Shown: positions 7,873-64,000 of the stretch, one piece after another | How the letters are laid out: every line of letters starts with the position of its first letter | Numbering within the stretch: position 1 is the first letter of the stretch | Origin: Blasia pusilla | Lineage: Eukaryota | Length of the DNA stretch: 64,000 nt | Assembly (NCBI GenBank): GCA_050084515.1 | Contig: CM114271.1 | Span: 17,546,001-17,610,000, forward strand | Direction of reading: 5' to 3' | The notes under the pieces: generated by a model | What the model saw: only the letters and a program-made list of their open reading frames with translations | Told to the model about the DNA's origin: nothing | The model's database searches: none | Position numbers and translations under genes: made by a program

Positions 7873-11644
<3,772 letters not shown>

Positions 11645-23300: not shown

Positions 23301-26300
23301 CAAATAGTCCGCATTTTTTACGTAATGCATTGCCCATAATAGTGCCCTCTAATTGACATCTGCCGGAGCTCTATAAAATGATGCAGGGAACTTAAGGATT
23401 CGACGTGGTATTTATCATGCTATTGGACCACTTAATGCGGAGATGAGTGTTTCTCCACAATTTGCATAGATTTATATTCATGATGATGAGTATCAAATTG
23501 GACAAAGGAGAATCGAGACAATCGTGATCGATTGAGGATTAAGATCTTGAGGGGATTACAAGACATGTTACATGTCCATAATCCATATGTCGCTATCTTT
23601 CTATATGTAGCAAAGGATTTATGTATTTGGATTTTAATATTGTCTTAAAGGGTACCTTATTTGATTGCCATATCAATTTGGAGATTACGAATAGCATATT
23701 GGAGCGAAGTACTTCTATAAGTATGTATATAAGGGATCAAATGCCATATCCTATAAATTGGCAAAAAGTAGAGTATGGAATATATTATTGATGAGACATC
23801 CTTATATATTGATGCAAAGTACTTGACTTTGTATTTTTTATGATATTTTATAATTATTTTAGAATATTGAAAGGTTGGACTCAGACTGTATTTTTTTTTT
23901 GCTTTTCAAGGTATATTTATTCTTAAGAAGCTTGTTGGAGACTCTTCAAGTTTAGTCTACACGTTGAGCAACAAAGTATTATACGATTGATTGTTCATCT
24001 CCTTGATAGCCAGATGGTATATATTCATGATCAAAATTCCTTGGGTAATATTCTAGAGCGGAGTAAGGAGGCCACCCTCACTCAATGGTTTGCAACTAGT
24101 GTATTTGATCCTTCTGCTCGACAACTTCATATTTGGAATTTCCTTCTCATTACTCTTGGAATAAGAAGACATGGGTTCGACGTAAACTTGGAAGAAAAGG
24201 ATGTTGACATCCTGTCAGACGTTTGTATATGACTAACCTAGGTGAACTTTCTCTTCAATGTATATTTTGTCTTTCCAAAATATATATTGAATGTAATATA
24301 ATATCTTTTTTTGTGGATATTTAATATTTTTATTTTATGTAAAATTATATAGGTGAAGGGAAGTGTCATTGGCTACGGTTACTTCTTCATCATGTGAGAG
24401 GAGCGTGAGGAGGATCTCAATCAGATCATGATTTAAGGATGGTTGATGGTGTTGTTTATTCTACTTTTAAGGAAATTGCTATTCAGATGGGATTATTAGA
24501 ATTTGAAGACGACAGGGAGGTTTTTTCGAATTCATGCTTTGAAGAGGCGGTTAAAATTTGTACCTGTTATTCATTGTAATTGCTCTTTGCTATTATTCTT
24601 CTCTACAACCCGCCTTCTATACTTGGTATGGTGTGGGAACATTTCTTAGTTCCACTAATTGAAGATCTCTTACATCAAAGGCGTGAGGTAATATTCATGC
24701 CTTCTATTTATTTTTATTTTTTTAAATTTCTATTGATTTTATATGCATTTTATCAATATTTTTCTATTTTTTAAAATTTTGATGTAGAGAATTGAAGTTC
24801 TTGATCTTGCTTTGGACATGCAAACTATAAATCTTGCATTATTAGAGACCCTTTATCATCTTCAAGATCATGGTAAAAGTATGGCAGATTTCTTAGACAC
24901 GCTTGGACTTGACTTCTTTACTCAAGATTTATCGATCTCGTTCTTATAGGAAGAAGAGCTCTGTTATGATCGTGAAATGCTTGCCGACCGTGTTGAATGA
25001 GGGGAGATTTCATTGACTGATGAAAAATGAGCTACATGGAATGTTGTCCATCTTCTATTTGAGGATGTGTTAAATGATGCGTCACCTATTGTAAGTGCAT
25101 TTAATATATGTTATGCTTTTTGAAGATTTATTTCTATATTTTAATTATTTTGAATTTGTATTTGGTGACTAATTTGGATGTTATTAGGCAAAGTTATTCT
25201 TCATCGATGGTCCTGGTGGAGCGAGAAAACCATTTGTATACAATATTTTTCTTGCTAGCGTTCGAATCAAGGGTTATATTGCTCTTGCATCTTCTGATAT
25301 TGTTGCTTTGTTACTCGATGGAGGATATACTGCTCATTTTCGATTCAAGATTCCAATTCAGATATATAAATCATCTACTTACAAGTAAGTTTATGTTGAA
25401 GATTTTGTTATTACTTTGCTTTATTTCTAAAATTGTGTTTCTATTATTTTGTTATTATTGATCTATATTAGGAATAAATATTTCTTACTTTTTGATTTCT
25501 TGTGTGTTTTCTAGCTTATCCGTTAATAGTGACATTGCATGCCTTATACAAAAAGCAAAGTTCATCGTATGGGATAAAGCTCCTATGATGCATTGTCATG
25601 CTTTTGAGGCTATCAATCGTACTTTCCAAGATATCATGGGTTTCATGGATCTTGCATTACGAGATCTCCCTTTTGGGGGCAAGATATTTATATTTGGTGG
25701 TGACTTGCGACAACTTCTTCCTGTAGTATGTCATGGTGATCGGCCAACTATTGTGCGTACAACCCTTAGAAAATCTCTTATTTGGTCTCATGTGAGAATA
25801 ATGAAACTCACTACTAACATTAGAGTGAATTGTTTGCAAAGTAACAAAGATTGAACCTTATGTTGTTGCATTTACTATCCTATGTATATTTTATCAAGAT
25901 ATACCCATTATTTTTTTGTTAAATTTAATTTAGGACAAGCATGACATGAGCAAGTTGGATTTGCAAACAAGTTATTGAAGGTTGGCGAGGGTTAGATACA
26001 ATTGCATTTTGAGTGTGGAGATGATTTTATAAGAATTCTTGATGTGTTGATTGTTAAATGCCACATACTTAATGATTTGATTGACATTTTGTATGGACGT
26101 GATATTGATAAGTGGAGTGATATTCACTTCTTGAGGGGTACATCTATTCTTACAACAAAGAAGACTACCGTGGATTTTATCAATGCCAAAATTATGTCGC
26201 AATTTGGAGAAGAGGTAATTCTAATATTCCATGAATGTCATCAATTTATATGAAATGAATACATGATTTATTTGTTCTATTAGAAGTTATCCTTTAGATT

Positions 26301-28294: not shown

Positions 28295-28925
28295 TCAACT
28301 TGAGGAATAACTTTCCAAAACACAACCGACCTCAGATTGCACCAAGCTATGGCGCTGTGTGTGGACGGTGATTTGGCTGCAATTGAAGATTGCATCTCCG
28401 AAGGCTACCAATACACCCTCTACGTACACAATGGACGTCAGTTTTATACCAACTGCACAATTTTGGGAAGAGTCCTCTTTGTTTCAAAATTGTCACCTGC
28501 TCGTGAGATCCGGTCGCGCTGACGCTCTGACAAGCGTATTGATTGCTCAAGGTCGGACCGATCTAGGCCAAAGCACAGGCTTGGTGTTTCAGAATTGCAT
28601 TATTTTGGGCATGCCAGATTACATGGAGGATCTGCGCAAAAATCCGGCATTGCTTCAATCCTATCTCGGGTGGTCGTGGAAGAGGTTCTCCCGGACGATG
28701 TTCATCTACTCCTACCTGGACTCCGTGATATAACCCGAGGGATGGCTTGCTTGGGATGGAACTTTCGCGTTGGATTCACTCTTCTATGGGAAGTATCAGT
28801 TGTGTAGCCCTGGAGCGGTTGCCGCCTCTAGAGTTCCGTGGTCCAACCAGCTCACCTCCAACCAGGCCGATGCTTTTGGCGTCGAGAGATTCATCCAAGG
28901 AAATCGTTGACTTCCCTACGCAGGG
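28295..28925 (+). pseudogene. Pectin methylesterase (pectinesterase) C-terminal fragment
   Basis: Across frames: HQAMALCVDGD...EGYQYTLYVHNGRQFYTNCTILG; FQNC...IAQGRTD...STGLVFQNC...YLGWSWKRFSRT; GWLAWDG...LFYGKY...PG...RVPWS...FIQGNR. These match plant PME catalytic-domain motifs. Frameshifted and 5'-truncated. Confidence 0.85.
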
Positions 28926-33008: not shown

Positions 33009-36000
33009 AGAAGGGTTGTGAACTTGAAAACGTTGCTCAATATTGCACGTATTCCTAACTTTGAAGAGAATCACATTTGAATTCTTAGGTTGGGAGATCG
33101 TATTCATAGTATGATTGGCCGTTTTAGTGTTGGACTTATGAATGTTGTTTGTCCGACTTGCAATGCTCTACATGGGAAGTGTGAGAGAGTGAAGTATACT
33201 AGGTTTATAAGCTCGCCTTTTAGTATGTGTTGTGGGCATGGTAAGATTCAATTACCATATTTGACAACTTCACCTTTTATACTAGCAGAATTACTTTCTA
33301 GTATGAGTTCAAAAAGTCTTCATTTTGTGCCTAATGCACGTGCCTATAATAATGCTCTTCAATTGGTATCTACTAGGGCATATGTAACAGAGCAACGAGG
33401 CGATACAGGAAACTTCAGGATTCAAGGTGATGTATATCATTCTATTGGACCTCTTCATGCTGAAAGTGGTGCTCGTCCACAATTCGCGCAAATTTATATT
33501 CATGATGATGAGCATCAGATGGAACATAGAAGAAGGATTATGAGTGGAGATTATCGGGATCAATTGAGGCCAGAGATCTTAAGGGGATTACAAGATATAT
33601 TACATGCCCATAATCCATATGTGGCTTTATTTCGAAATGTGGCTATTGATCCATGTAATTCTGACTTTCATATTGTTCTTAAGGGTAGTAAGCGAGGTCC
33701 TGATGCAAAACGATACACCTTGCCTGTTGCTTCAGAGATTGCAGCTATCTTGCCTAGAGATGGGAGTGATCCAATAGAAGGACGTGATATTATTGTTCGC
33801 TTACATGGAGGAGGGATTCGTCGTCTGTCAGATTTGAATGAAGCATATATCCCATTGCACTTTGTTTTGCCTTTTGTTTATGGTGAAGCAGGTTGGCATC
33901 TTGGGATACCTTTGCAAGTGCAACATGATCATAGAGATGATCTGCCGTTAAGAGGGGATGCTATGATGGACGAAGATAGAGATGATATTGTACAAGGAGG
34001 AATTTAAGGTGAGGTTACCACTTATGAGGCGAGTTCAAAGACCATTACAACTTTACAATTTGCTTCATTCAGACTTCAAATGCGAGCTAACGCTATGGAT
34101 AATAATCGGTTGTTGAGGTTTGGTCGTCTTACTCAAGAATGTATGGTGGATATGTAGGCGACTATCAAAATGCAACGGCTAACTTGGATACGATTGCATC
34201 AAAAAGAGTTGAGAGCTGATTTATACCAAGGTGTCAGAGATGCCATGACTCGGTATGATGTGAATGGTCAAGGCATAGGGAGACGTATTATCATATCTTC
34301 GTCTTTCATAGGAGGACCCCGTCACATACATCAATTGTACCATGATGTTATGGCCATTGTGAGACATTTTGGGAAGCCTGACTACTTTTTGACTATGACT
34401 TGCAATCCTAAATGGCCAGAGATTACTGTTGCTCTGCTTCATGGGCAATCAACGTCTGATCATCCTGACCTGGATATACGTGTTTTCCAACAAAAGAAGA
34501 AGGATTTTTTGAGACTTATATTGGATAAGCATATTTTGGGTCGAGTGATAGGATGCATTCATATGGTCGAGTTCCAAAAGAGAGGGCTACCACATGTGCA
34601 TATCCTAATTATTCTTGCTTCTGAGGATAAGCCAAGGACAACCTCTGATTTTGACGATATTATATTTGCTGAGATTCCGAATCCCATGACTCATCCTAGG
34701 CTATATTCTATTGTAAGAAATTGTATGATTCATGGTCCGTGTGGAGTAGCACATCCAAATGCACCTTGCACGGATAAAACGACAAAAAAATGTTCCAAAG
34801 GATACCCAATGCCCTTTGCATAAATGACAATGGAGAATGAGGATGGATATCCTATTTATAAGAGGTAATTGATTGGTTTTGTTGTTTATTTCGTCATTTA
34901 ATGTTCTTCTATTAATGTGCTATCTATTTTCCCCAACTATTAACATACTTCTATATATGTTTATGCAGGCCTGATAATGACAGATTGATTAATAAGTCAA
35001 ATCATGACTTTGATAATCGTTGGGTGGTTCCATACAATCTAATGTTATGTACTTTATTTGATTGTCATATCAATATGGAGATAACAAATAGTATCTTTGC
35101 AATAAAGTACTTTTATAAGTATGTGTACAAAGGATCTGATGCCATATTATATACCTTGTCAAATACTACATCAAGAGAGGATACTATTGATGAGACATCA
35201 TTATATCTTGATGCAAAGTATTTCGATCCCTTCTATCTTTCAAGATCTCCCAATTTTTCCTATGATATTATGTGGGACTCTAACAATATTTATATTGTAT
35301 GGTATAAAGGTAGGTTTCTTCTTCAGAAGCATGTTGGCGAATCTTCAAGTTTAGTCTACATGCAGAGCAACCAAGTATTGTGAGATTGATTGTTCATCCT
35401 CCAGACAGTCAAACGGTATATTTTCATGGGCAAGATTCATTGGGTAATATTCTGGAGCGAAGTAAGGAAACCACTCTCACTCAATGGTTTGCAACAAATG
35501 TTTCTGATTCGACTACGCGACAATATCTTTATTTGGAGTTCCCTTCTCATTACTCTTGGAATAAGAAGCAATAGCATCTGCGTAAACGTGCACAAAAAGG
35601 ATGTGGACATCCTATTTGACGTCTGTATATGACAAATCCAAGTTAACTTTCTATTCTTTGTTAAGATACAATTATTAAGGAAAAATTTGAATTACTGTTA
35701 AAATCATATTCATGCTTCCTTCCTAATACTTTTTTTAGGCTAATCCTAGCTGAAGGGGAGCGTCATTGGTTACGATTACTTCTCCATCATGTGAGAGGAG
35801 CTCAATCATATCAAGATTTGAGAACCATCGATGGTATAGTTTATCCTACCTTCAAAGAGATTGCTATTCAGATGGGACTTTTGGAGGACGATAGAGAGAT
35901 CTTTTCTTGCTTTGAAGAGGCGGTTGTCATTTGTATTGGCTATTCATTACATCTACTCTTTGCCATCAGTCTTCTATATAATACACCTTCTCTTCCGGCT

Positions 36001-39000
36001 ATGGTGTGGGGACATTTTTTGGTTCCATTGACAGAAGATCTTCTACATCAAAGGCGTGAGGTAATATGGATGCCTTTTGTTAAGTCAATTTTTTTCTTAT
36101 TTCTCTTATGAATATTTTAGGTACTTTATTTACGTTTTAACTTCTATATTTGTTCCTTGTAATAGAGAATTGGTATTCCAACCCTTCCATTGGATGTTCA
36201 TATTATTAATCTTGCGTTATTGGAGGTCCATTACCATCTTCAAGATCATGATAAAAGTATGGCGGACTTCCCCAACATGCCTCAACCAGATTTCAAAGCT
36301 CGTGATTTATCTATTTTCCGTCTAGAAGAGGAAGAGCTCTCCTACGATCATGATATGCTTTGTAAACGTGTGAGAGCAGGAGAGATGTCTTTAAATGATG
36401 GACAACGAGATATTTGGGAAATTATTTGTAATGCTTTTTGCGATATCTTACAAGATGCTCCACCTTATGTAAGTGGATATTATGTATAGTATATTTTATT
36501 ATTATTTCATTTACTCTTTAAATTTCTTTAACTTTTATTCTTTTAAAGTGCTTTTCTGTAACAAAAAATATGGATTTTTCAGGCAAAACTTTTCTTTATC
36601 GATGGTCCTGGCGGAACAGGAAAAATATTTTTGTACAACCTTCTTCTTGCAATGGTACGGAGCGAGGGTCATATAGCTCTTGCAGTTGCATCTTCGGGGA
36701 TTGCCGCTTTATTATTGGATGGAGGTCGTACTGCTCATTCTCAATTCAAGATTCCTATTAAAGTACATGAAAGTTCCACTTGCAAGTAAGTCTAGATTTA
36801 AGATTTCTTTTCCTTTTATGGCATGCATATTATTGTTTTCTTCTTTGATTTATCCTTCATAAATGTTCCTCACATATTGTTTTGTTATCGATTTTCCAGC
36901 TTATCGGTCAATAGTCATATGGCCCGCCTTATACAAAAGGCGAAGTTGATCGTGTGGGATGAAGCTCCTATGACCCATTGTCACGCATTTGAGGCCGTTA
37001 ATCATATTTTCCAAGATATCATGGGTTTGATGGATCCTCGATTACGAGACTTGCCTTTTGGGGGGGAGATCGTTTTATTTGGTGGTGACTTTCGACAACT
37101 TCTTCCAATTGTTCGTCGTGGAGATCGTGCCACAGTTGTGCGTGCAACACTTAGGAGATCTCTTACTTGGTTTGACGTGAGATTATTGAAACTCACTACC
37201 AACATGAGAGTTTATACTGTACAAGGTATTAAAGAATAAACCTAATATTTCACCTTTTTCATTTCATCTGGTTTTTAATTTTATTTAATATTTACTTATT
37301 CCTTCATCTTATATTTTTTTTTCAGGATATGCACGAGAAGAGCAAGAAGCGTTTGCAACGTGGTTATTAGAGGTAGGAGAGGATCGTGTACCGTTACATT
37401 TGGACCTTGGAGAGGATTTTATACAAGTTCCGGATGCGATAATTGTTAAAACCACAAGGATCAATGATCTCATTGACATTTTTTATGGACACGATGTTCA
37501 TAAGTGGAGCGACATTGATTTCTTGAGGGGTACATCAATTTTGTCAACCAAGAATACTACTGTGGATATTATAAACGCGTAATCATGTCTCGGTTTCCAA
37601 GAGAGGTAATATTTATATTCTTGAATATCATTATTATATTTTGATTGTTGTATTGCTACATTTTTCTATCATCTCTCTTATTATTAATGATTTATTTTGT
37701 TTTTGGAGGAGCATACTTTCTTGAGTGCTGATTCTGTTTCCGACGATGAGATGAGACTTGTTTATCCAACAGAATTTTTGAATACATGTTTACCATCTGG
37801 ATTTGCATGTTTACGATTTCAACTTCCTATCCGTCCTGCTTTTGCAATGATTATTAATAATTCTCAATGTCAAACATTAGATAGAGTTGGTATTTACTTG
37901 CCCAATCCAATATTTTCTCATGGGAAATTGTATGTTGCCTTGTCAAAAATAAACTCGAAGAATTCTATTCATATTATGACAAATAATAAAAATGTTACTA
38001 ACAAAATAAATATTTACATTAGAAGTGTTATATATAATGAAGTGCTAAATTAAATTAAAATAACATTATATGTATGAAATTTTATATTAATATGCATCTT
38101 CATTTATTGGTATGGATGATATGTTTAATTTTATATATACTAAATTTTGATGCCCATGCATGGCACGGACTTACTAGTAACGTTTACTCCCAAGTTTATA
38201 AGACAGATTTAGAAATTGCAAGAACCCATAGAAACATGTGAAAGTCCAGCGGGACTTCACAAGGACGGGTTTCTAGGCTTTTAGGGAGGAAGCATTAATA
38301 GTTTTGTAATTAGTCGGTCCGTTTGCTAGCTCGCTAGCTAGTCAGTTAGTCAGCTGGATACGAGCACAGGGGGAGCAAAGGAGCAAAGCGGCCTTTAGTG
38401 ACATCCACCGGAGGAGCTTGACGTTAGGCAACAGCTGTAGAAGTGGTTGGACGCAAAAAGGCATATGGAAAGTGGACTAGTGAATCTGGGAAGTGTCATG
38501 CCATGTCATTGGGGAGGACGAAGCACTGGAGAGCTTCCTCACTCACTTTGCTTCTGGCAAAGATTTCTTGCCTGCCTTGCTTCGCTTTGCTCCGCTTGGC
38601 TTGGTTGTCGGTTTCTTGAGTAGGCCGGGTGGCTGGCTGTCTGTTAGGTGGGAGGAAAAGGAAATTCTTCTCAGGGTGTGGATCTTATTTTATTGTGTGT
38701 GCATCACATTTCGTCTGAGCATTAGGCGACTTCTTTCCATCTGTGCCGTGCTCTGAACCGCACTTCAGTACTGCCTGATTGTGTCCGCCTGAGTGAGTGA
38801 CTGTGCATCCGTCCGTCCGTCCATATGTGGGGCTGATAGTGTTCCTGTCACTGACTTTTGCATTCTATGTATGTAGCTTGGACTGATTCCATTCCTTACT
38901 GCCGCGGTTGTGGTCTTTGCCGTGGTGCTTTTTCGCCGTCTGCCGTCATAGGCTGTGTATCCATTTGGCGAGGAAGGGAAACGTGGAGGGCGATTTTGTC

Positions 39001-50426: not shown

Positions 50427-53203
50427 TGTCGTGCGCATAGACATCGCTACACAACATACATCACAGTCACCGAAAACACACACAAACACGCACGATCCCA
50501 TGCTAACTTATGGCATCCAAACAACGAGACAAGAAGTACCAAAATATCTCCAATAAAATAAGATGAAATCTCTCTCACAACACCATAACTCTCACATGTC
50601 TCTCTCAATGTCAAACCAAACCAAACTAAATGTCCTCTAATGAGAGGCTTGGGTTACACTCACAAGGCAAGGGACCATAGTTCTTCCCCCTCGTGCCAAG
50701 AGGTTCAACAAAGAGAGAATGAGCTCTCCCAAGCTCTCTCCCAAGCATGGTAACCTATGCTCCCAAGTCACCTCCTTGGCTCTTGACCTGATGTAGGAGG
50801 TCAAGGGTAACTTCCCAAAATAGAAAAGTGACCATATATTCAAAATAATACTTATCTAAAATAGTAAGTTTCTCAATATGGCTCCAAGTACCGTAAATGT
50901 TCGGAACATGACTCGACGCACAGTTACGCACATGGTCCTTCCAAACCATACCATCGCGTCCCTCCAATAAGAGAACACTTGATGGCAAAACCTCACGCAC
51001 TCTCAAGATGGTGCACCCTACAGTCACATCCAATGTCGTGGGTGCCGTATGCTACAAGTAGACATAGTATCCCTAATGAAACATGTGGATAGTAGGTCGA
51101 TAACCACCTCCCCAAATAGTCGCATACCTCAATGTATCCCAATGCTACGCAATCGTCAAGTTCTCAAATGCCATGGGCATCACTCTTCGAAATAAATCAG
51201 CCCTCTGAGAACATGCTCGCATCCATACATCAGGGTCATCAAGGTTCAACACCTCACCAACATCTAGACAAATGGTCGTAGGTAAATCTGGCTCTTGGCC
51301 TTACAAAAGCAAGTACGGTGAGAAAGACGCTAAGGATGCCTGCTAGCTGAATCTGTATCCCATCGCCAACCACGGCAATTGGAGGTCCCAATCTCCTAGG
51401 TGACCTCTCTGCAAGCCATAGTTGCGTAACCCTCTCTTCATTGTCTGCACAACTCGCTATGCTAGTCCATCCGACTTAGGATGATCTCGCGATAGTGCGG
51501 TGGTCAATCAGTGCCTAATCATACAAGGCCTGAAACTCCCCGCGGAACTCTGTACCCTGGTGTGTCAACACCTCAGCTATTGCTCTGTAAAGACTCAACA
51601 TCCGATGTAGGAAGGTATACGCTACTCCCTCACTCGCTTTGTCACGCAATGCAACCAACTCTATCCACTCGGAGAAGTGCTCAACCATCACCAACACATA
51701 ACGACTATGGTGCTCCGTCAGAGGTAAAGGTCATGCCAAATCCAAACTCCAGCTATAACCTAAATCCATGATCAGAAGTGGATGCAACTATGGAGTCAGA
51801 GCATTGAAGGATGTCCGGACTCGATCACGCACCATACATCTGGCAACAAACTGCTGAACGTTAGTCTGCATGCCTCGCCACCAATACTAAATCTAGAGCA
51901 AGATGTACGTCCGCTTAACTCCAAAATGACCCAACTCCTCATGGGCAGGACGTACCAAACGTACTCTCTGCAAAGGATGAGGCACTACACGCACTCTATC
52001 ATCTTCCCACACTCGCAACACATGTGTCCCCTCCCACGGGAATCGTCTAGCTTGCTGTAGGATCCGATCTCGCTCTCTAGCACTCACTGTGCTCGCGATG
52101 CTGGCAGTACGCATGTACTCCAAGACTATTCCATCGTCGTGAATATCTCGGCCACCTGTCGTCTCCTCACCGGCTTCTAGATCTAAGGACTCTCCATCAG
52201 ACCTTGCCATCAAAGTCTCAGTAATCTGGCTCTCTATAGCCAAGAAGCCCAAATAGTTGACGCGTGCCATCCTGGCATGAATTGCTAATCACTCTCTCCA
52301 TGCCATCGAGCTCCAATTGCATCTCGTTGACTCGGGCATGGATTATGGCTCAGACCATCTGCATCCTGGTTGAGCATCCCAGATCTATGTACCACCTGGA
52401 AGTCATACTCCTGCAACAAAAGAGCCGACCTCGCAAGCTTCCTTGTAAGCTTGTCGGACTCCATCAACCACTCAAGTGGTTGATGATCAGCAATGATGGT
52501 GAAGGGATTTCCAAATAGATAACATCAGAAATATGCGACAGCCCACACTACAGCCAAGCACTCACCCTCAAACGAGCTATACTTCGCCTCTACAACGTTG
52601 TTCGAGCGACTAGCGTAAGCCACCACAAACTATCTACCATCATTTTCATGCCGGGTGAGCACAACTCCAAGCCCCAACATGCTCCAATCGGTATGCAATT
52701 GGAAAGGACGCCCCCTGATCGGTCTCCTCAATATGGGCGCGGATGTCAATATGTCCTTGAGTAGGTGAAATGCTCTCTCCTCCTCATACCCCCAATACCA
52801 CTCCTGATCCATCTTGGTCAGCAAGGTTAGTGGTTTTGCAATCGAACTAAAACCCTTGACGTACCGTCGATAGAAATTCTCCAATCCCATGAATGCACAA
52901 ACTCGACTCACATCTATAGGGTGTGGAATGCGTGAAATAGCCTCCACCTTTGTCTACTATACACCAAGGCCCCTTGGGTACATAGTCGTAGAAGAACTTG
53001 CACTTGCCTAGGTGTAGCTCTAGCCCATGTACCTACAATCGTCAAAACACCTCCTCTAGATTACGCTCATGCTCCTCAACCGTGATGCTAAAGACTACAA
53101 TATCATCAATATTACACCTAGCAAAATCCAAACCTGCCAAGATCCAATCCATGATCCTTTGAAACTCAGCCGAGGTGTTCTTTAACCCGAATGGTAAGAA
53201 CCG
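50427..53203 (-). mobile_element. Older antisense copy of the same gypsy-like family, 3' part (RT C-terminus, RNase H, integrase, terminal A-B repeat)
   Basis: Minus-strand ORFs 52630-52947, 52285-52467, 51893-52270 and 51515-51697 closely match 60299-62650. Terminus TGTCGTGCGC at 50427 is the reverse complement of repeat B, followed by part of repeat A (to about 50887). The PHD region is deleted. Confidence 0.9.
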
Positions 53204-53720
53204 TGTCATGTGTTTTAGGATAGATCGGTGAGATCTAATAGAGCTAGAGCGCCTTTGTGAGTAGTGGAGGACACGCTCAGTAGGTCGCGGATGACCTGCT
53301 GAGGCCTCGGGAAACCTGAGAGAGCCGGTTTCCCCCTTGTTTCGGCTCATTTGGAGCCATATTGAAGAACTTACTATTTTAGGTAAGTACCATTTTGAGT
53401 ATATGATCAACTTTATATTTTTGGTAAGTGGCCCTTGACCTCCTACATCAGGTCAAGAGCCAAGGAGGTGACTTGGGAGAATAGGTTACCATGGAGAGAG
53501 CTTGGGAGAGGGGAGGGGTATATCTCAAGGAGAGAGAGCTTGAGAGCTCATTCTCTCTTTGTTGAAACTCTTGGCATGAGGCGGTGGAGCTATGGTACCT
53601 TGCCTTGTGAGTGTAACCCAAGCCTCTCATTAGGAGAGTGGGTTTGGTTTGACATGAGAGAGAGTGCACACCTTTGAGAGCTATGGTGTGAGATGGTGGA
53701 GAGAGAGATTGGATCCTACT
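53204..53720 (+). repeat. Terminal repeat A1
   Basis: Matches 62961-63471, with roughly 15-20 differences by eye. Confidence 0.92.
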
Positions 53721-54294
53721 TTACAAAGAGAGAATGAGAGAGTGAGAGAGCTTCATGGGGGAGCTCATTGGTCACTCGCTGTTTTTGCAGGTTGGGGACC
53801 GTGTTCCCCGTTCAGCGGCTCATGGGAGTGCTCACCGGAGCAAGGGCAGCTTTCATTATTATTTGCATTTGCTGATTTTTCGTGTGGAAGAGTGGCGCGC
53901 GGAAGCGCTACCCAATTGTTGATAGGGATTGAGTATGGGTGCGGGTTGCCCCATGCTGGTGCTCTTGGAAGCACCATGAAGCTTGCTGATTTGTATTTAT
54001 ACAAATGTTACATTTTCGTTGGGAGAAATCAGCGCGGGAGCGCTGCCGGATTTTGTGTAGGAGAAAGAGAAATTGGGCTTTACTACAGTCCCTGTTTGTT
54101 TTTACTGAAGTGTTCGATTCTAAATATTTTTTCATACTAGCGTAGATCGTGAAGCTGTGCACGCTGTGCAACAAACAATGCGCAATTTGGAGTTGCAAGC
54201 AAAAAGTTATGGTCAATCTTGTAAAGCTGCCATTGCTAGGCGATTTTTAGGGTTTAATTGTGCAAACCCTAAATCAGCCGCCACACCGACCGCG

Positions 54295-54460
54295 GCCGTC
54301 GCCATCATAGTCACCGTCACCGGTCACCGGTCAACCTTCACCTTCGAAGGTCAACCGTCACCGTCAAACATCAACGGTCAACGTCAACAGTCAACCGTCA
54401 CCGTCGACGGTCGCCCGTCACCATCAATGGTCAACCGTCACTATCAACGGTCCACCGTCC
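54295..54460 (+). repeat. Short-unit repeat array (ACCGTCA / GGTCAAC) in the element 5' leader
   Basis: Many reiterated CACCGTCA/CGGTCAAC units, partly self-complementary. Confidence 0.75.
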
Positions 54461-55498
54461 ATTGTCCACCCTTTGGGTGCCATTTCCGCCATTACGGAGT
54501 GGAGGGTCTTCCACGACGTTCGTTGATTCCTTGACTTGCGTCGCCACCACGTACTTTGTTTTGGCCGCCACCGTCATCGCAGTTTCTTCATCAACCAGTG
54601 ATGGGAGATGACCTTCGGTTATGGTGTTTGAGTTTTGATTTCATGTTGCTATGTTGTGATTGGTAGCCGCTGGACGACGATCGAGTATCGTGCCGTGATG
54701 CCCGTAGCCGCAACGCGCCGCCGATTGCCGCGCCGTGCCGCTCGTGGCCGCACCGCACCGTCTCGATCGTGGAGCCGCACCGTCATTGTGGAGCAGAGTG
54801 TGGGTTTATTGTTGATTGAGGAGGGTATGCCGCCGAGTGCCGCATCCCGCCATCGAGGGCCGTGCCGTTCGTAAAGCCGCCGTTCGTGCCGCCGCAACGC
54901 CGCACGTTTATTTGGGACCGCATTGTCTATCGAGGAGTTTTGAGCGTCGTGACGATGGGAGGAGAATGACTTGCTGATTGGAGGAGTTGTCTCCACGATC
55001 GAGTTGGGGTCGAGATTTGCGATTCTTTGAGAGCGACATTCACATGTGTTCGAGTTACCCATTTCGGTCCTTTACCCCTGCACGTGTGAGGGATTAGGAT
55101 TTGGGTAGTTTATTTGGGGATATTGGGTGTGTGGATGCTGAGAGCATCATTTATGTATATGGTTTAGGGGACATAGACCTGTGTGGGATGTCCGAAGTTG
55201 AGGATAGGTTGTCGATGAGATGATAGCCTGGTCGATTTGCCATGCCGCGTGTTGTTGCACGTTACACGTCTCGGGGAGAGAGAGTGTAGATCGAGTGCCG
55301 CATGTTTGGGATGAGTGATTGAGGGATTCCTCACGAGGTTCAGAGTGATCGGGTGAGAGGGGAACGAGGGTCATCACGGAGTCCGTTCGGGACTTTGAGA
55401 GGCGAGGTGGTGAACCCGAGAGTAGCTCGAGAGGTTTTACGCGGAGTGGCGCTAGGTTTCGAGGGTCTCCACGTGAGGGACTACCTCGACCTCCTTCT

Positions 55499-57960
55499 GT
55501 GTCATTGTTAGACGAGGGGGAGGGTATAGAGGAGTTTGTGAGCACTTCGCCACACATTGTGAGTGGTCCTACCAGTTGGGCGTACAAGATGGACGACCGG
55601 GGTAGAGGACCGCGTAGGTTTTCAGGTGCAGTAGGCACGATTGAGTTGCACAATTTTATAGTAGAGTTTAGGAGTTGGTGCGACTCCCGGGGCCAGAACT
55701 CTAGAGAGTTCAACCCGTTCTGACATGGAACGGTATGTTCCAGCATTTAGAGGGGGCGCCCATGGATGATTACCATGAGTTCTCTCAGAGATATGCATGT
55801 GAGATCGAGGCGTGGAGGCTCTACTATGACCCACATTATGTGTCATGGACGGAGCCGTTCCCAAATGAGGAGGATGAGTCAGGAGAGGCTACTGCCTCTT
55901 CCACTAGTGACGTTTTAGGAGGGGTCACTCGACGACGGGAGCGATTGCACCGTCTAGTCGGGTTCGCCCCGAGGTTCAACCCGTGGTTGAGTTCTTTCTT
56001 TGAGTTGAGGGCGAGCTACCAGGGGGTACGGACGGAGAAGTTGCGGAGCATCCACGAATTCCAAAGGCGCCCGGGTGAGAGTTTGCGTGAGGCTTACACT
56101 CGCTTGCACCGGTTGATCAACGTCACTCAGGGGGTGATAGAGGCTCAGGCTATCCAGTCATGGTACGCGATGCTGGACCGGACTCTGCGGACACGGGTGC
56201 GGGAGGGGGTGCTTCTTATGAACACCTCCCCTACGTTGAGAGATGTTTTTAGGACCGCCGAGAACATTGAGCGCAACATGGCGGAGAAGAGCGTAGCCAC
56301 CATGGGTTCTGGGCGAGAGCGATCCACGATTATCGCACCACTGCATAAACAACGTGGACCCCGAGATAGGTCGACTGTGGCACCACGAGCTCAGGGAGGA
56401 TACCGGGAGGCCGTGCCACAGAGACCTGCGCCTTCATATGCGGCTCAATAGCAACCGCCTACTATTACTTGTTGGTCATGTGGTGGAGCCCATCATCAGC
56501 GCGATTGCACTCGTCAGGGTCATGGACGTGTGCCTTAGCATGGAGGAGGAGATGGTGCTGCACCCGGAGGTTATCAGTGTGACTATTGTCAGAGGTATGG
56601 TCATACACGCGCCATGTGTTTCAGTTTACATCCTGAGTTACGTCCGGACCGAGGGCCAGAGAGGGCACCAGAGCGAGTAGCCCGTCCAGGTGGGCCTAGA
56701 GATCGTGCACCAGGTGGTTCCGTTGGGGGACGAGTAGCAGGAGTTGCCCGACAGGGTGGTGGAGCTGCTCGTGGAGGAGGTAGAGTACCACCACGTAGAT
56801 GCATCGAGGGAGACGTCGGATGTGAGGTTGGGATGGCTGCTCAGATACAACAGCTACAGGAGCAGATTGCCACTATGGCATTGAGGTTACCCGATGCCGG
56901 ATCCGTGGCATCGACATCATATGGAGCAGCCAGAGATCTGGAGGATCTTGGATGGATGTGCGGGGTTGCCTAGATGGAGGCCGCTACAATTGTGACGCGT
57001 GGAGCGGCCGCAGAGTTGGATCCACAGCGAGGGGAAGCCAGAAGGTAGACTAGGCTTCCTCAGTCTTTCACGTTGTCCGAAGCGATGAGGACCCCATCGA
57101 TGGGTCCTCATCAAAGTTCCTGGAGAGTTGGTGATGTTGTTGGTGTGCAGGCACAAAGGGCGATGGGAGAAGCGAGTGCGACGACTCCTATTGTTGATGC
57201 TGAGGAGAGGCATGTGTCGAGCACGTTGTTGGGGGCGGCCACCGTTGTGTACCGCACTCCTTTATTTTCTGCTTCCGATGTTATGACGTTGGGGGGTACG
57301 CCCGCCGAGGCTTATCGGCTGGCCGCTTCACTATGTGAGCGCGGAGTTGGAGTTCCTGCATCACGTTCAGAGGTGATTGCAGAGGAGGTGATGGACCTGC
57401 CCTTGGAGCGGATGCTTGGGCCGTCCACGTCAGATTCATGGCAAACTGCGGCTGCTAGGATGGCGGAGATGCCCGCTAGACCCACGATAGAGCGTGCCAT
57501 GGCTTCTCCTGGTGTTGTGTTGCTGGATAACCGAGGAGAGGTCTTCCAGTTGGTGAGTCCTGGAGGTAGAGCTTTTAGTCCGCAGCGCGTCTTGTTGGAT
57601 TAAGAAGCGCAACCCTTGATGTTGGGGAAAGCGTCATTCAGAGGATTGGGCTTGACGAGAGCCGATGTGGAGCGTTGTCCATTCCGGATCCAGACATCCT
57701 TGGGTGGAGCAAGTACCACACAGTATATCACCTGACAAGAGGTCGTGGTGAGGATTCGCCCGGGACATCCTGAGATGAGTCCGTGAAAGTGCGCCAAAGC
57801 GATAGTGGCCCGATCACGAGTCCTCGACGTCTTGGTTGGTGGAGCAGTGTTATACCCGATGGGGTTTTCCCTGGATTACTGGGAGGAGTCAGCGTCCTAT
57901 AGACCAGGATGGCAGTCAGATGATGGGCGCCTTAGCTCATTACCCGTTTGATTCACAAGT
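55499..57960 (+). pseudogene. Gag (capsid-like region plus two CCHC knuckles) and aspartic protease of the gypsy-like element
   Basis: RFSGAVGTIELHNFIVEF; FQRRPGESLREAYTRL; knuckles CWSCGGAHHQRDC (about 56469) and CDYCQRYGHTRAMC (about 56578); protease site RVLLD*EAQPL (stop at 57601 where D-S/T-G is expected). Confidence 0.8.
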
Positions 57961-58311
57961 GCAGTGATCGAGCAACGGCAAGGAGAGATGGCGACCTTAG
58001 CAACATTTAGTAGTGCCATCACTTGGCCTAGTGATTTGATTGAGGGACATGTCCATGCAGAGGATACTCCCGTTCCTGAAATTTCTATGGAGAGGAGTGT
58101 TATGGTAGCTGCATCATTCCATGGAGGAGAGGTGCCGTTGTGGGGCTCGATTGAGGAGCTTCAACGATTGGCAGATGAGCACGTGCAGACCGCGTGGAGC
58201 GAGGCGTTTGCACCAAAGCGTGATGAGTCTGAGGAACCCGAGGTAGCAGGGAGTGCTACGATGACACCCTTGGATACCACACCCATTGTGTGGTGTACCC
58301 CGGAGGAGGGT

Positions 58312-59260
58312 ATTCAAGTGTTAGATCTCTTTGGAGGGATTAGCACCGGGTTAGCTGTTGTTTTGCAGGCAGGAGTGCGAGTACAGCAGTACCTGTATGT
58401 GGAGAGTGATGATGTTGCGAGGCGCGTCTCATTACGACATGTGGCACAATTACGCCTACGTTTTCCCGACTTATTGTCTGCGTCCGCAGTACAGGGGTAC
58501 GGGAGTTCCCTACCGAGGGATATTTTGTTGTTGGGGGTGTAGGACTTAGAGCGGGTAGGGACCATTGATTTGGTCATTGCCGGTTGGCCATGTCAGGGCC
58601 AATCGAGTGTTGGACGAGGCAGCGGGTTGGCTGACACTCGATCCAGGTTGTTTTGGGAGATGTTGAGGGTCTTACGGCAATTGCAGGAGCACCAGTCTCG
58701 TTCTCCAGCCTACATTCTGGAGAATGTGCCGATCTTAGGAGACTCCAGGTCACGGGTGGTGACGAGTGCTCATCAGGTGCGTGCCTGGATTGGCCCAACA
58801 GTGTTCTTGGATGCGGCGAGTGTAGGTTCTAGAGCCCATCGCCCGCGTCTATGGTGGACCAACTTGGTGCCCCATGCGGTGTTATGGAGGGCGTATGCGA
58901 GAGTGGAGCGCCCCTCCCATTTGTTAGTGGATTCCATTGTGGATCAAGGTCGTTGATCACAGGCAGTGAGGCATGATGATCGACCACCGTTGACTGTGGT
59001 CAACAGGGTAGGCAGGCCGCGGGCAACCTTGCCCACGTTTGTGAGTTTTCCCGCTTCCTATGCATACAAGGAGGCCGGTTCTGGCTTGGTTTGGGATGAC
59101 CAGGTTCAGCGGTTGGTGGAGCCCAACGCCGACGAGAGAGAGCGAGCAATGGGATTTCCCACAGGAGTGACGGCAGTACCATCAGTGTCAGAGGCATCAC
59201 GACGCCATGTCTTGGGTCAAGCGATGGACCTGAAGTGCTTGACATGGATCCTCAGCTTGG
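58312..59260 (+). pseudogene. DNMT3-like C5 cytosine DNA methyltransferase domain within the retrotransposon polyprotein
   Basis: Motif I VLDLFGGISTG, II YLYVESD, IV IDLVIAGWPCQ (catalytic Pro-Cys at 58588-58593), VI YILENV, VIII RAHRPRLWWTN, IX/X ERERAMGFP...RRHVLGQAM. In frame with gag-protease; interrupted by TAG 58540 and TGA 58954. Confidence 0.9.
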
Positions 59261-59697
59261 GAGTGGCTGAGCAGCGTCGTATGAGATCGTGACAGATCAC
59301 ATCGGTTGCGTTGGTGAGCCCCATGCCTACCGAGACGGTGGAGTGGAAGCGGTGGGGCGAGACCCGAGGAGATCTACGATCGGGAGATCGGGAGAGACAC
59401 CCTTGGACTTCTTGGGATGTTTTGGTGCACGCAAGGAGATGATAGCCACAAAGATCGGCGTGGTTTCGGCACCGCACGTGGAGGAGATCGAGTTTGCAGT
59501 TGGTCGTAGGAGAGCGGCCGAGTGTTGTTGTTCGAGACGGGGTTGTACCATAGCAACCACCGATACCCGCGCCGGAGAGTCCTACCGTAGTCACGATGGA
59601 GACTTGGGAGCCAGATATGGGCCCTAAGTTGACAGGATGAGAGCGGCGCCGAATACATCAGTTCCTCAGGAGTTATAGGAGCTGCTTTGCATTTAGC

Positions 59698-62650
59698 ATG
59701 GAGGATTTGGGTACGCTGAAGGGACCGGGGATCCGCATTGAGTTGTCGATTGATAGATCTTCCGACGACCCTCAGTCTGATGATATGGAGAGGGCTCGAT
59801 TGAGTAGGAGCCAGGACTTGGTCGGGAGAGGACTAGTGGAGATGTCGCATGGGGAGTATGCATCCGCCCGCTTTATCACGCCCGCCAAGAAGGATGTGCA
59901 TGGCAACCGGACGGATAGGCGGATGTGTGGGGATTACCGACCTATCAATCGGCAGACGAAGTCCGATAGGTATGCCATGCCCACCCCTGAGGAGATCTTT
60001 GATGCGATTGGTCACGCAAAGGTCTTGATTCATTGATTTATGAGCCGGATACCATCACCGCCTATCAGATTGGAGGATAGGCGTAAGACGGCATTTTGGG
60101 GCATCAATCCTCACGGGAAGGATTGTTTGTACCGGTGGCGTTCTTACCATTTGGTAAAGAACGCGCGGCTGAGTTTCGAGGGTCATGGATAGGATCTTGG
60201 CTGGTCTGGATTTTGCTAGGTGTTATATTGATGACATCGTAGTCTTTAGCGCCACGGTTGAGGAGCATGAGCAACATCTAGAGGAGGTGTTTTGACGATT
60301 GCAATTACATGGGCTGAAGCTACATCCAGGCAAGTGCCAGTTCTTCTACGACCAGATTGAGTACTTGGGTCATACAATATATCCAGGAGGCCTTGGTGTT
60401 CAGCAGACGAAGGTAGAGGCTATCTCACGCATTCCACGCCCTACAGATGTGAGCTGTGTTTGCGCATTCATGGGATTGGCGAACTTCTATCGGCGATACG
60501 TCAAGGGATTGATTCGATTTGGCGTGACCTTGCTGACCAAGGTGGATCACGAGTGGCACTGGGGGGATGGGCAGGAGCGAGCATTTCAGTTGCTCAAGGA
60601 CAGGTTGACGTCCGCATCCATCTTGAGGAGACCGATCAGGGGCCATCCTTTCCAGTTGCACACAGATTGGAGCATGTTGGGGCTTGGAGCGGTGCTCACC
60701 CAACATGATGATGAGGGTAGAGAGTTTGTGGTGGCTTATGCTAGCCGCTCGAACAACGCTGCAGAGGCGAAGTACAACTCGTATGAGGGTGAGTGCTTGG
60801 CTGCGGTGTGGGCTATCGCGCATTTCAGGTGTTACTTATTCGGCAACCCCTTTACCGTCATCACTGATCATCAACCACTGAAGTGGTTGATGGAGTCCGA
60901 CAAGCTTACAGGGAAGCTTGCGAGATGGGCTCTGTTGTTGTAGGAGTATGATTTTCAGGTGGTACATAGACCTGGAACGCTCAACCAGGATGCAGATGGG
61001 TTGAGTCGTAACCCATGCCCGAGTCAGCGAGATGCGACTGGAGCTCGATGGCATGGAGAGAGTGATGACGAGTCGGTGCCAGGATGGCACGCGTCAGCCT
61101 ATTTAGGCATGTTGGCTATGGAGAGCCAGAGTGTGGAGACTTCGATGGCGAGGTCTAGTGGAGAGTCCTTGGATCCCGAGGCCAGTGAGGACACGGCAAG
61201 TGGCCGAGATATTCATGATGATGGAGTAGTCTTGGAGTACCTTCGTAGTGGCAGCGTTGCGAGCACCATGGATGCTAGAGAGCGGGATTGGATCCTACAG
61301 CGGGCCAGACGGTTCCGTTGGGAGGGGACACATGTTTTGAGGGTTTGGGAGGATGGCAAAGTACGCGTAGTTCCGCATCCTTCGCAGAGAGCACGACTAG
61401 TGCAGCATGCCCACGAAGAGTTGGGTCACTTTGGGGTGAAGCGGACGTACAACTTGCTCCAGATTCAGTATTGGTGGCGAGGCATGCAGACTGACGTTCA
61501 GCAGTTTGTTGCCAGGTGCATGGTGTGTGATCGGGTCCGAGCATCGTTCAATGCTCCGACTCCACAGTTGCATCCGTTACCGATCATGGGCTTAGGGTAT
61601 AGATGGAGTTTGGATTTTGCAGGACCTTTGCCCTTGACGGAGCGACACAGTCGTTATGTGTTGGTGATGGTCGAGCACTTCTCGAAGTGGATCGAGTTGG
61701 TTGCATTGCCTGACAAAGCGAGTGAGGGAGTAGCTTATGCCTTCCTTGATAGAGTGCTGAGTGATTATGGCACACCGGCTGAGGTGTTGACAGACCAGGG
61801 TACCGAGTTTCGCGGTGAGCTCCAGGCCTTGTGTGATCAGGCGCTGATCGACCACCGCACGACTTTGCGAGATCATCCCGAGGCGGATGGATTAGCGGAG
61901 AGAATTGTGCAGACAGAGAAGAGGGGTTTACGCAAGTATGGCTTGCAGAGAGGTCACCTAGGAGATTGGGACCCCAGTTGCCATGGTTGGCGACGGGATA
62001 CAGATTCAGCAGGCAGGCATCCTTAGCGTCTTTTTCACCGCACTTGCTACTTTATGGCCGAGAGCCAGATTTACCTGCGGCCATTCGTCGAGATGCTGGT
62101 GAGGTGCTGGACCTTGATGACCCCAGATGTATGGGTGCGAGCTTGTTCTCAGAGGGCTGAGTTATTTCAGAGAGTGATGCCCATGGCGTTTGAGAACTTG
62201 GCGATTGCACAGCATCGGGATACGTTGAGGTATGCGACTATTCGGGATGGTGGTTATCGACCAACTATCCGGAGGTTTGATCAAGGAGATTATGTCTACT
62301 TGCAACAGACGGCACCCACGATGTTGGATGTGACTGCAGGGCGCACTATCCTTAGAGTGCGTGATATTTTGCCATCAGGTGTTCTCTTGCTGGAGGGACG
62401 CGATAGTATGGTATGGAAGGACCATGTGCGTAATTGTGCGCCATGTCACCTTCCTAACATTGATGGTACAGTAGATCCGAGCTTAGAAATAGTTCCTGCA
62501 GGCTTGCATTGTATGTTGTGTGGTTCTGCCCGTGGTGCGGCCACAATGCTAGGCTGTGATGGGTGTTCAAGAGGATGGCATATGGCATGTTTGACGCCAC
62601 CTCTCACTAGGGTTCCTCAGGGACGATGGATGTGTCCCAGATGTACATAG
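59698..62650 (+). pseudogene. RT - RNase H - integrase (HHCC, DDE) - C-terminal PHD finger
   Basis: RMCGDYRPIN; YIDD at 60224-60235; LHTDWS...GAVL...VVAYASR...ECLAAVW...TDHQPL; HEELGH...CMVC; SLDFAG, TDQG, GLAER; terminal CMLC...CDGCSRGWHMAC...WMCPRC. Confidence 0.92.
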
Positions 62651-62831
62651 AGTAGGTCGTTCTACATTCCGACTTGTGTCTGTGACATGGATGACAAGAA
62701 GGCGACTAACGATGGGGCCACATGAGCACCCGACCTTCTTGCTCTTAGCGTCCGAGAGATGTATATCATGGTAGGTAGGGATAGATGGCTATCTGGAGTT
62801 AGAGGGACCTAACCACCAGCTAGGGGGGCGA

Positions 62832-63599
62832 TTGGAGATATTTTGGTACTTCTTGTCTCGTTGTTTGGATGCCATGAGTTAGCATGGGATCATGCGTGTT
62901 TGTGTGTGTGTTCGGTGACAACGATGTATGTTGTGTAGCGATGTGTATGCGCACGACAAGTGTCACGTCTTTTAGGATAGATCGGTGAGATCTAATAGAG
63001 CGCCTTCGTGAGTAGTGGAGGACACGCTCAGTAGGTCGCGGATGACCTGCTGAGGCCCCGGAAAACCTGAGAGAGCCGGTTTCCCCCTTGTTTCGGCTCA
63101 TTTGGAGCCATATTGAGGAACTTACTATTTTAGGTAAGTACCATTTTGAGTATATGATCGACTTTATATTTTTGGTAAGTGGCCCTTGACCTCCTACATC
63201 AGGTCAAGAGCCAAGGAGGTGACTTGGGAGAATAGGTTACCATGGAGAGAGCTTGGGAGAGGGGAGGGGTATACCTCAAGAAGAGAGAGCTTGAGAGCTC
63301 ATTCTCTCTTTGTTGAACCTCTTGGCATGAGGCGGCGGAGCTATGGTACCTTGCCTTGTGAGTGATACCCAAGCCTCTAATTAGGAGAGTGGTTTTGGTT
63401 TGACATGAGAGAGAGTGCACACCTTTGAGAGCTATGGTGTGAGATGGTGGAGAGAGAGATTGGATCCTACTATTGGAGATATTTTAGTACTTCTTGTCTC
63501 GTTGTTTGGATGCCATGAGTTAGCATGGGATCATGCGTGTTTGTGTGTGTGTTCGATGACAGCGATGTATGTTGTGTAGCGATGTGTATGCGCACGACA
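62832..63599 (+). repeat. 3' terminal repeats B1 (62832-62958), A2 (62961-63471), B2 (63472-63599)
   Basis: B1 and B2 both read ATTGGAGATATTTT...GCGCACGACA; A2 matches A1. A purine run AGGGGGG (62822-62828) precedes B1. Confidence 0.9.
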
Positions 63600-64000
63600 G
63601 CCGCCACTAGTACAAACAATGAACATTTTGGTTCGTGAGGATCGATGCCCCAAAATGCCATCTTCTGCTTGTCCTCCAATCTGATAGGTAGGTGATGGTA
63701 TCCGGCTCGTAAATCTAATGAACTGAAGACCTATGCATACCCAATCATATTTAAGATCTCCAGAGGGGTGGGCATGGCATACCTATCGAACTTTATTTGC
63801 TGATTGATAGGTCGGTAATCTCCACACATCTGCCTATCCGTCCTGTTGCCATGCACATCCTTCTTGGCGGGCATGATAGTGGCAGATGCATACTCTCCAT
63901 ACAATATCTCCACTAGTCGTGCTCCAACCAAGTCCTGCCTCCTACTCTGAATCAGAGCCCTCTCCATATCACTGTACCTGTAGGGATTTCGAAAGATTGG
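63600..64000 (-). mobile_element. Upstream continuation (RT N-terminal part) of the antisense gypsy-like copy
   Basis: ORF 63731-63967 (GEYASATIMPAKKDVHGNRTDRQMCGDYRPIN...YAMPTP) matches 59698-60036 and joins the RT sequence left of 53203. Confidence 0.9.

Follow-up and report, generated by a model that had tools for sequence, protein, structure and literature searches.

The 64,000-nucleotide stretch of Blasia pusilla DNA analysed here (the window; positions 17,546,001 to 17,610,000 of contig CM114271.1, GenBank assembly GCA_050084515.1) carries a Ty3/Gypsy-type retrotransposon of about 10.4 kb (53203-63599, plus strand), in which the integrase region is directly followed by a plant homeodomain (PHD) zinc finger. 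The element holds, in order, gag, a DNMT3-like methyltransferase (DNMT), reverse transcriptase (RT), RNase H (RH), integrase (IN) and the PHD, and is of the streptophyte 'Gypsy-DNMT3' or KnitGypsy-Dnmt3 kind. The fusion of integrase and PHD is a trait of the whole family, and the closest relatives of the finger, in sequence as well as in structure, are PHD fingers that read the histone H3 tail with lysine 4 unmodified (H3K4me0). Taken as a whole, the finger is probably, on balance, an accessory domain of the integrase that is predicted to bind the H3 tail and to tether integration. The copy in the window is itself a pseudogene and unable to make protein.

The finger (CMLCGSARGAATMLGCDGCSRGWHMACLTPPLTRVPQGRWMCPRC) is a genuine PHD by its ligand pattern, its Pfam score and its fold. 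Its zinc ligands are spaced C-x2-C-x11-C-x2-C-x4-H-x2-C-x14-C-x2-C (CMLC...CDGC...WHMAC...WMCPRC), and a single Thr codon separates it from the TAG stop. The Pfam profile PF00628 (PHD) matches residues 162-206 of the 207-amino-acid (aa) C-terminal frame over profile positions 1-47 of 47, scoring 44.6 bits (E=1.5e-11; the curated cut-off is 24 bits). A C4HC3 regular expression matched only once over the six frames of the window, at 62510-62644, and in 0 of 200 mononucleotide shuffles. In the AlphaFold2 (AF2) model of the 207-aa frame, a long helix leads into a five-strand barrel and then into the PHD; the mean predicted local distance difference test score (pLDDT) is 79.9, and the finger exceeds 90. 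Across 30 aligned relatives, each of the eight zinc ligands is either invariant or conserved to at least 90%. The canonical C4HC3 pattern at the stop codon, which the first-pass annotation of this DNA had read from the letters and proposed to check with the PF00628 profile, is thus borne out. That annotation had placed the finger at 62500-62650; the TAG occupies 62648-62650, and the start given is about 10 nucleotides (nt) ahead of the first Cys. It had also put the finger where chromoviruses carry a chromodomain, and this position, directly after the C-terminal beta-barrel of the integrase, is correct. No match to the chromodomain profile (PF00385) was found in the C-terminal frame by Pfam at E<=0.01, and the PHD occupies that place. 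The fusion to the integrase C-terminus that it described stands in so far as the finger directly follows the barrel family-wide, and fails for this copy, in which two frameshifts break the link.

At E<=1e-3 an exhaustive search with the 207-aa frame returned 6499 proteins, of which 245 reached E<=1e-30. Among the 150 best listed matches, the alignment runs through the finger, to query residue 204 or beyond, in 145. PF00628 lies C-terminal to the integrase core domain (rve) in all 24 long relatives hand-picked from these 150, and is present in 118 of 120 listed word-index homologues. A query without the PHD, consisting of the integrase and barrel of one relative (P0001), was chosen to avoid selecting for the finger; it gave 96 matches, 85 of them with PF00628. 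Two of the 11 others are outgroups of about 30% identity, one being a chromodomain-bearing Ananas element. Six more cover 48-77% of the query, two break off immediately ahead of the finger, and the last shows a C4HC3 match. No full-length family member clearly lacking the finger was found among the 96 matches. Presence in the family, on which the first-pass annotation had made its reading depend, was accordingly observed with all three of these samples (the 150 matches, the 24 long relatives and the 96 matches to the PHD-less query).

The finger is also uniform in its geometry. Across 254 distinct fingers of the family, neither the C3-C4 nor the C4-H spacing varies; the C2-C3 loop is 11 residues long in 224 of them, and the C6-C7 loop is 14 residues long in 225. 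Of 80 metagenomic loci fetched, 61 cover the finger and 45 of these keep all eight ligands; the remaining fingers are decayed, with C-to-Y changes and stops. A rough estimate of the ratio of non-synonymous to synonymous substitution (dN/dS) in the finger is about 0.29, a figure drawn from four pair values of which three are not independent (10 sequences intact over the region, giving five usable pairs). Many of the metagenomic loci (L001-L080) are decayed like the window copy: stops have replaced Gln or Trp codons, and Cys residues of the finger have become Tyr. This decay fits heavy C-to-T mutation of the elements.

Named relatives of the C-terminal region include Marchantia polymorpha (76-79% identity), Calypogeia fissa (75%), Sphagnum and Klebsormidium nitens (43-52%), together with the chlorophytes Volvox, Pleodorina, Tetrabaena, Haematococcus and Scenedesmus. 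One K. nitens protein carries the source annotation 'integrase core domain and FYVE/PHD zinc finger protein'. Two M. polymorpha gene models (P0177 and P0180), annotated as PHD-containing 'hypothetical proteins', share 76-79% identity with the integrase C-terminus of the window. One of the two runs past the finger into sequence resembling the DNMT C-terminus of the element, and both look like transposon fragments annotated as genes.

The solved structures nearest to the finger are those of H3-reading domains. Among the best 60 of its 104 PDB sequence matches, CHD4 PHD2 comes first (6.7e-18), and the others include PHF12, KAT6A, DPF2/3, KDM5A/B PHD1, PHF21A/BHC80, ATXR5, BAZ2A/B, AIRE and UHRF1. 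Foldseek gave root-mean-square deviations (rmsd) of 0.6-1.5 A to the PHDs of DPF3b, ATXR5 (target TM 0.83), BAZ2A/B, MOZ and BHC80. Foldseek and VIA-align together place the fingers of ATXR5, DPF, BAZ2, ORC1b and UHRF1 nearest, and several of the entry titles name unmodified H3 peptides. Similarly, the model of a relative matched ATXR5 with Z 8.5 and the ORC1b BAH-PHD bound to unmodified H3 with Z 7.7. As a class, the PHDs that read unmodified H3 (CHD4 PHD2, DPF2/3, MOZ PHD2, KDM5A/B PHD1, BHC80, ATXR5, BAZ2A/B, AIRE, UHRF1 and ORC1b) match the finger at 6.7e-18 to about 1e-9, with 38-48% identity and rmsd of 0.6-1.5 A over 47-50 residues. They have in common with it the motif M-L-x-C-D-x-C, an aromatic residue before the His, and L-x-PPL...W-x-C-P-x-C. 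They differ from it in belonging to host chromatin proteins, and the window subfamily is without their acidic loop residues that contact K4.

Some single residues point in the same direction. Readers of trimethylated K4 (H3K4me3), such as BPTF and ING2, have an aromatic-cage Trp two residues before the zinc-binding His. At this position the window copy has Gly, as do 230 of the 254 family fingers, and Trp is found in 0 of 254. An Asp after the third Cys and the L-x-PPL...W-x-C-P-x-C surface are typical of unmodified-H3 readers; the Asp is present in the window copy and in 237 of 254 family fingers, and the surface is also conserved. The acidic residues give a mixed picture. H3K4me0-reading PHDs contact the unmethylated K4 through one or more acidic loop residues, and at least one acidic residue occurs in the C2-C3 loop of 219 of the 254 fingers, but the window copy has none and the relatives closest to it 0-1.

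The finger is seen as a C-terminal accessory domain of the integrase in a Ty3/Gypsy-type lineage of green plants and green algae. In active members it would bind the N-terminal tail of histone H3, most likely with K4 unmethylated. Such binding would tether the integration complex to chromatin without active-promoter marks, and thus away from active promoters, in a role that would parallel that of the chromodomain in chromoviruses. Because the nearest relatives are unmodified-H3 fingers and the cage Trp is missing, integration tethering by the finger is plausible. Several points weigh against this proposal. The C2-C3 loop is devoid of acidic residues in the window copy, and the count is 0-1 in the copies most closely related to it, so that the K4-methylation sensitivity of the window subfamily is not predictable from sequence. 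The PDB comparison took in the best 60 of 104 matches, and H3K4me3 readers may come lower. The window copy, with its many stops and two frameshifts, can give no protein, and the nested insertion described below is a single case (n=1) and no reliable guide to targeting. In addition, PHD fingers also bind non-histone partners.

The versatility of PHD folds is the starting point of the strongest alternative, in which the finger, stabilised by zinc, would be a module for interaction with proteins or nucleic acids instead of a histone reader, serving to contact a host factor, to multimerise the integrase or to regulate the methyltransferase of the element. In animal DNMT3, the ADD domain regulates the catalytic domain. 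The missing K4-contacting residues of the window subfamily favour such a module, as does the position of the finger behind a Tudor/SH3-like barrel, with which it forms a two-domain model that is only loosely like the PHF1/MTF2 and UHRF1 cassettes (rmsd 12-13 A). We nevertheless consider it rather unlikely, since the nearest solved relatives are overwhelmingly H3-tail binders and the family has kept the Asp and the surface that are typical of readers.

The element pairs the finger with a methyltransferase, and this pairing is shared by many members of the family. In the PDB sequence search, the DNMT part of an intact 1516-aa relative (P0193) stood in for the DNMT frame of the window, which has stops; DNMT3B, DNMT3C and DNMT3A make up the top 29 of its 34 solved matches (best 1e-06). 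The DNMT region of the window, with X at the stops, matched 39 of 150 representatives with phmmer. Among 268 relatives with any match, 260 have the finger and 78 have DNMT and finger in one protein. Co-occurrence of PHD and methyltransferase across relatives, which the first-pass annotation had offered as a check, was therefore confirmed at the level of the single polyprotein.

Two arrangements are found. The order RT-RH-DNMT-IN-PHD is represented by 38 full examples (e.g. P0017, P0032 and P0057), named chlorophytes (Scenedesmus and Pleodorina) among them, and these proteins usually continue for >100 residues beyond the finger. The window shares the order DNMT-RT-RH-IN-PHD with P0193 and P0198. 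Where window-type proteins and named streptophyte relatives were checked, 3-14 residues separate the finger from the stop. Thirty proteins run from RNase H through the finger with no DNMT between, some of which may have a DNMT upstream of a truncated gene model. The DNMT domains at the two positions in pol are clearly homologous (E down to 3e-74), which would reflect either movement of the domain within pol or two captures from similar sources. The >100 residues after the PHD in chlorophyte-type relatives (P0108, P0068, P0073, P0094 and P0118) include a conserved segment, modelled by AF2 as a helix and four strands (pLDDT 75-87); the fold-search rows barely covered this tail. Pfam gave a sub-threshold Tudor match (PF21743, E=0.096) in one of seven proteins, and a precomputed PF21743 entry exists for P0324. 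The tail may be a second, barrel-like reader domain.

The ADD domain of animal DNMT3 is a cysteine-rich H3K4me0 reader adjacent to the DNMT3 catalytic domain. The finger resembles it as a cysteine-rich reader associated with a DNMT3-type catalytic domain and differs in being fused to the integrase, far from the methyltransferase in the window subfamily. No ADD-like match was found in the Pfam scan or among the best 60 of the 104 PDB matches. The pairing could also be read to mean that the finger mainly directs the DNMT3-like enzyme rather than integration, reader and writer acting as one unit. Its occurrence in one protein with DNMT in the 78 relatives would suit this, as would the chlorophyte-type arrangement, in which DNMT lies directly upstream of the integrase-PHD unit. 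In the window subfamily, however, DNMT lies upstream of RT, and the PHD always adjoins the integrase barrel, which makes this second alternative improbable. The suggestion of the first-pass annotation that the PHD might steer methylation likewise finds no support, as RT, RNase H and integrase separate the two domains in the window subfamily. A combined proposal would have one polyprotein, in a lineage reaching from chlorophytes to bryophytes, join integrase, DNMT3-type de novo methyltransferase and an H3K4me0-type PHD that positions both integration and methylation on H3K4-unmethylated chromatin. Such a combination is unlikely; if true, the element would have recreated, in mobile form, the reader-writer logic that ADD and DNMT3 provide in animals, choosing and marking its own landing sites.

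In a third alternative, the PHD would recognise H3K4me3 and thereby direct insertions to active promoters. Some PHD fingers do read this mark, and promoter targeting is known for other retrotransposons. The lack of the cage Trp in all 254 family fingers, with Gly as the usual residue, speaks against it, and no finger of the ING, BPTF or TAF3 type occurs among the best 60 of 104 PDB matches or in the Foldseek list; this alternative is very improbable. That the match is a chance cysteine pattern or a host-gene exon outside the element, as the annotation of the same finger in two Marchantia gene models as host proteins might suggest, has a negligible probability and is refuted by the Pfam score, the shuffles, the contiguity of the finger with integrase sequence 75% identical to a liverwort relative and its enclosure by terminal repeats.

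Accessory PHD fingers and DNMT3-bearing Gypsy elements have both been described before. The KnitGypsy-Dnmt3 element of K. nitens has Gypsy domain content and DIRS-like repeats according to the legend of Fig. 4 in de Mendoza et al. 2018 (PMC5890265), and the name 'streptophytes (Gypsy-DNMT3)' is used in a passage of a 2026 preprint. As far as that legend describes it, KnitGypsy-Dnmt3 shares with the window element a Gypsy-type pol, an unrearranged DNMT3-like domain and A...B-A-B termini. In addition, K. nitens proteins with integrase and PHD are 43-52% identical to the C-terminal region of the window. The difference lies in the closest named relatives of the window, which are liverworts (75-79%) and Sphagnum and not Klebsormidium. 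In the main text and three text supplements of de Mendoza et al. 2018, figures aside, PHD has 0 occurrences.

Chromoviruses are alike in having a chromatin-reader accessory domain directly after the integrase C-terminal barrel, with a presumed role in tethering to a chromatin state. The reader in the window element is a PHD and not a chromodomain, and the nearest chromodomain-bearing match is 30% identical in the integrase region. REM1 and Gypsy-7a_cRei of Chlamydomonas are described as retrotransposons with a PHD finger, and Craig et al. 2021 call the PHD a common accessory domain in C. reinhardtii transposons. These are, like the window element, green-lineage long terminal repeat (LTR) elements with the PHD as an accessory domain; the legend for Gypsy-7a_cRei lists the PHD after RH and before INT, hence not at the end of the integrase, and names no methyltransferase. 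Co-occurrence of Chromo and PHD domains with RT and integrase domains is reported by Grau-Bove et al., and Ginger1 transposases with a Gypsy-like integrase can reportedly end in a PHD. The novelty that the first-pass annotation had implied was thus overstated, since both the PHD in retrotransposons and DNMT3-bearing streptophyte Gypsy elements are already in print. The combination of PHD and integrase is also annotated automatically in databases. What is added to print is modest: the presence of the element in liverwort-like genomes and the family-wide pairing of PHD and DNMT3-like domain. No functional test of the finger of this family was found in the literature searched.

The order of domains in the element is supported by a tblastn alignment in which residues 3-1513 of P0193 align to 58318-62644 as DNMT-RT-RNase H-integrase-PHD (residues 3-647 to 58318-60180). 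Pfam and tblastn to P0193 also agree on the order RT-RNase H-integrase (H2C2 and rve) of a Ty3/Gypsy pol. The features of the element are collected in Table 1. No Pfam gag match was obtained for the gag-like open reading frames (ORFs) at 55705-56973. The termini of the element are DIRS-like split repeats, A1...B1-A2-B2, and not two simple flanking LTRs; a pairwise alignment carries A1 on to about 53640 (about 97% identity and a single 6-nt indel). No clean target-site duplication is readable at the boundaries 53203 and 63599. In three of the 80 related metagenomic loci (L042, L007 and L025), all decayed copies, no terminal repeats were found, and the A...B-A-B architecture therefore rests on the window and the published legend.

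The five strands of the integrase barrel occupy residues 89-92, 108-114, 119-123, 129-133 and 137-139 in the AF2 model. In the model of a relative, the barrel matches Tudor, PWWP and KOW barrels as well as retroviral integrase C-terminal domains (Z 6.4-8.2). The motif NCAPCHLP (62435-62458), with the invariant Cys C140, closes the barrel just ahead of the PHD. In the preceding helix, H63 and D65 of the 207-aa frame (62213-62221) are >90% conserved. The Cys of the motif, H63 and D65 could be a candidate extra metal or contact site.

Table 1. Features of the element and its surroundings (positions within the 64,000-nucleotide window).
Feature	Position	Strand	Basis and remarks
Transposon and pectinesterase features of the window, jointly	5376-5795, 9265-11644, 25462-25854, 33081-37239, 28311-28733		
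Older related copy, RT part to terminal repeats	50427-53158 and 63634-64000	-	Inverted-repeat arms, 83-95% complementarity
5' terminal repeat A1	53203-53640	+	Direct repeats 53203-53244/62960-63001 (95%) and 53245-53544/62996-63295 (98%)
Tandem array, 20-nt period	54323-54459	+	Repeat family D2, five overlapping copies; leader between A1 and gag; GTCAACNGTCACC-like units
Gag-like ORFs with CCHC zinc knuckle CDYCQRYGHTRAMC	55705-56973	+	ORF list; knuckle read from translation
DNMT3-like C5 cytosine methyltransferase domain	58318-59292	+	PF00145 E=1.3e-11 on ORF 58543-58956; upstream of RT
Reverse transcriptase, degenerate	59641-60352	+	Translation, tblastn to P0193, weak PF00078 C-terminal piece
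RNase H	60296-60943	+	PF17917 E=3.8e-35; PF17919 E=1.3e-31
Integrase H2C2 zinc-binding domain and rve core	61379-61864	+	PF17921 E=2.6e-18 (residues 146-200) and PF00665 E=3.3e-13 (219-307), frame 60944-62026
Integrase segment in shifted frame	61975-62124	+	Nominal frame has TAG 62024-62026
Integrase C-terminal region: long helix, then five-strand SH3/Tudor-like beta-barrel	62123-62506	+	Ends with conserved NCAPCHLP
PHD finger (C4HC3)	62510-62644	+	Followed by a Thr codon and the TAG stop 62648-62650
Repeat B1	62831-62958	+	Direct repeat with 63472-63599, 98%
Repeat A2, internal copy of A1	62960-63400	+	Direct repeat with A1
Repeat B2, element 3' end	63472-63599	+	Direct repeat with B1

The pol frames of the plus-strand copy contain many in-frame stops and frame changes. 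The DNMT3-like domain (58318-59292) is broken by in-frame stops, and the RT is degraded by stops and a change of frame near 60037-60295. The integrase domains PF17921 and PF00665 lie upstream of the finger and nominally share its frame. A liverwort relative aligns by its residues 161-210 to the frame 61837-62160 (72% identity) and from its residue 201 onward to the frame starting at 62027 (75% identity). About 61975-62124 is encoded in another frame, and thus the integrase core is separated from the barrel-PHD unit by two frameshifts.

The plus-strand element was inserted within the RT of an older copy of its own family on the minus strand, which was traced by tblastn with residues 498-1453 of P0193 and resumes from about 63600-63634. 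The two copies are 84.6% identical, with 233 transitions and 116 transversions. Fifty-five sites show CpG-to-TpG/CpA changes, as expected if methylated cytosines had been deaminated. Compared with the plus-strand copy, the older one has moved towards A+T, with 158 G-to-A or C-to-T differences versus 75 in the opposite direction. No PHD is found in the older copy. In the alignment of the two, homology stops at about 62473 of the plus-strand copy and restarts at about 63103, marking a deletion of about 630 bp that also takes B1 and the start of A. An ancestral absence of the PHD in the older copy was rejected, the deletion being a secondary loss.

The window as a whole is rich in transposons. 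In addition to the two copies, it contains a fragment of a tnp2 (CACTA-type) transposase, a long interspersed nuclear element (LINE) with endonuclease and RT, a Helitron_like_N domain, two PIF1 helicase pieces and a pectinesterase fragment, the last indicative of a plant genome.

The copy in the window is dead and has no functional consequence of its own; what matters is the family to which it belongs. How a retrotransposon selects its chromatin is classically illustrated by the chromodomain tethering of chromoviruses, and a PHD at the equivalent place would add a second tethering system, one that can be tested and that may be specific for another mark. Hundreds of sequence clusters, ranging from green algae to liverworts and mosses, have conserved the unit of integrase and PHD. 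With a DNMT3-like enzyme in the same elements, the family would provide a natural system for the study of how mobile elements use host epigenetic marks.

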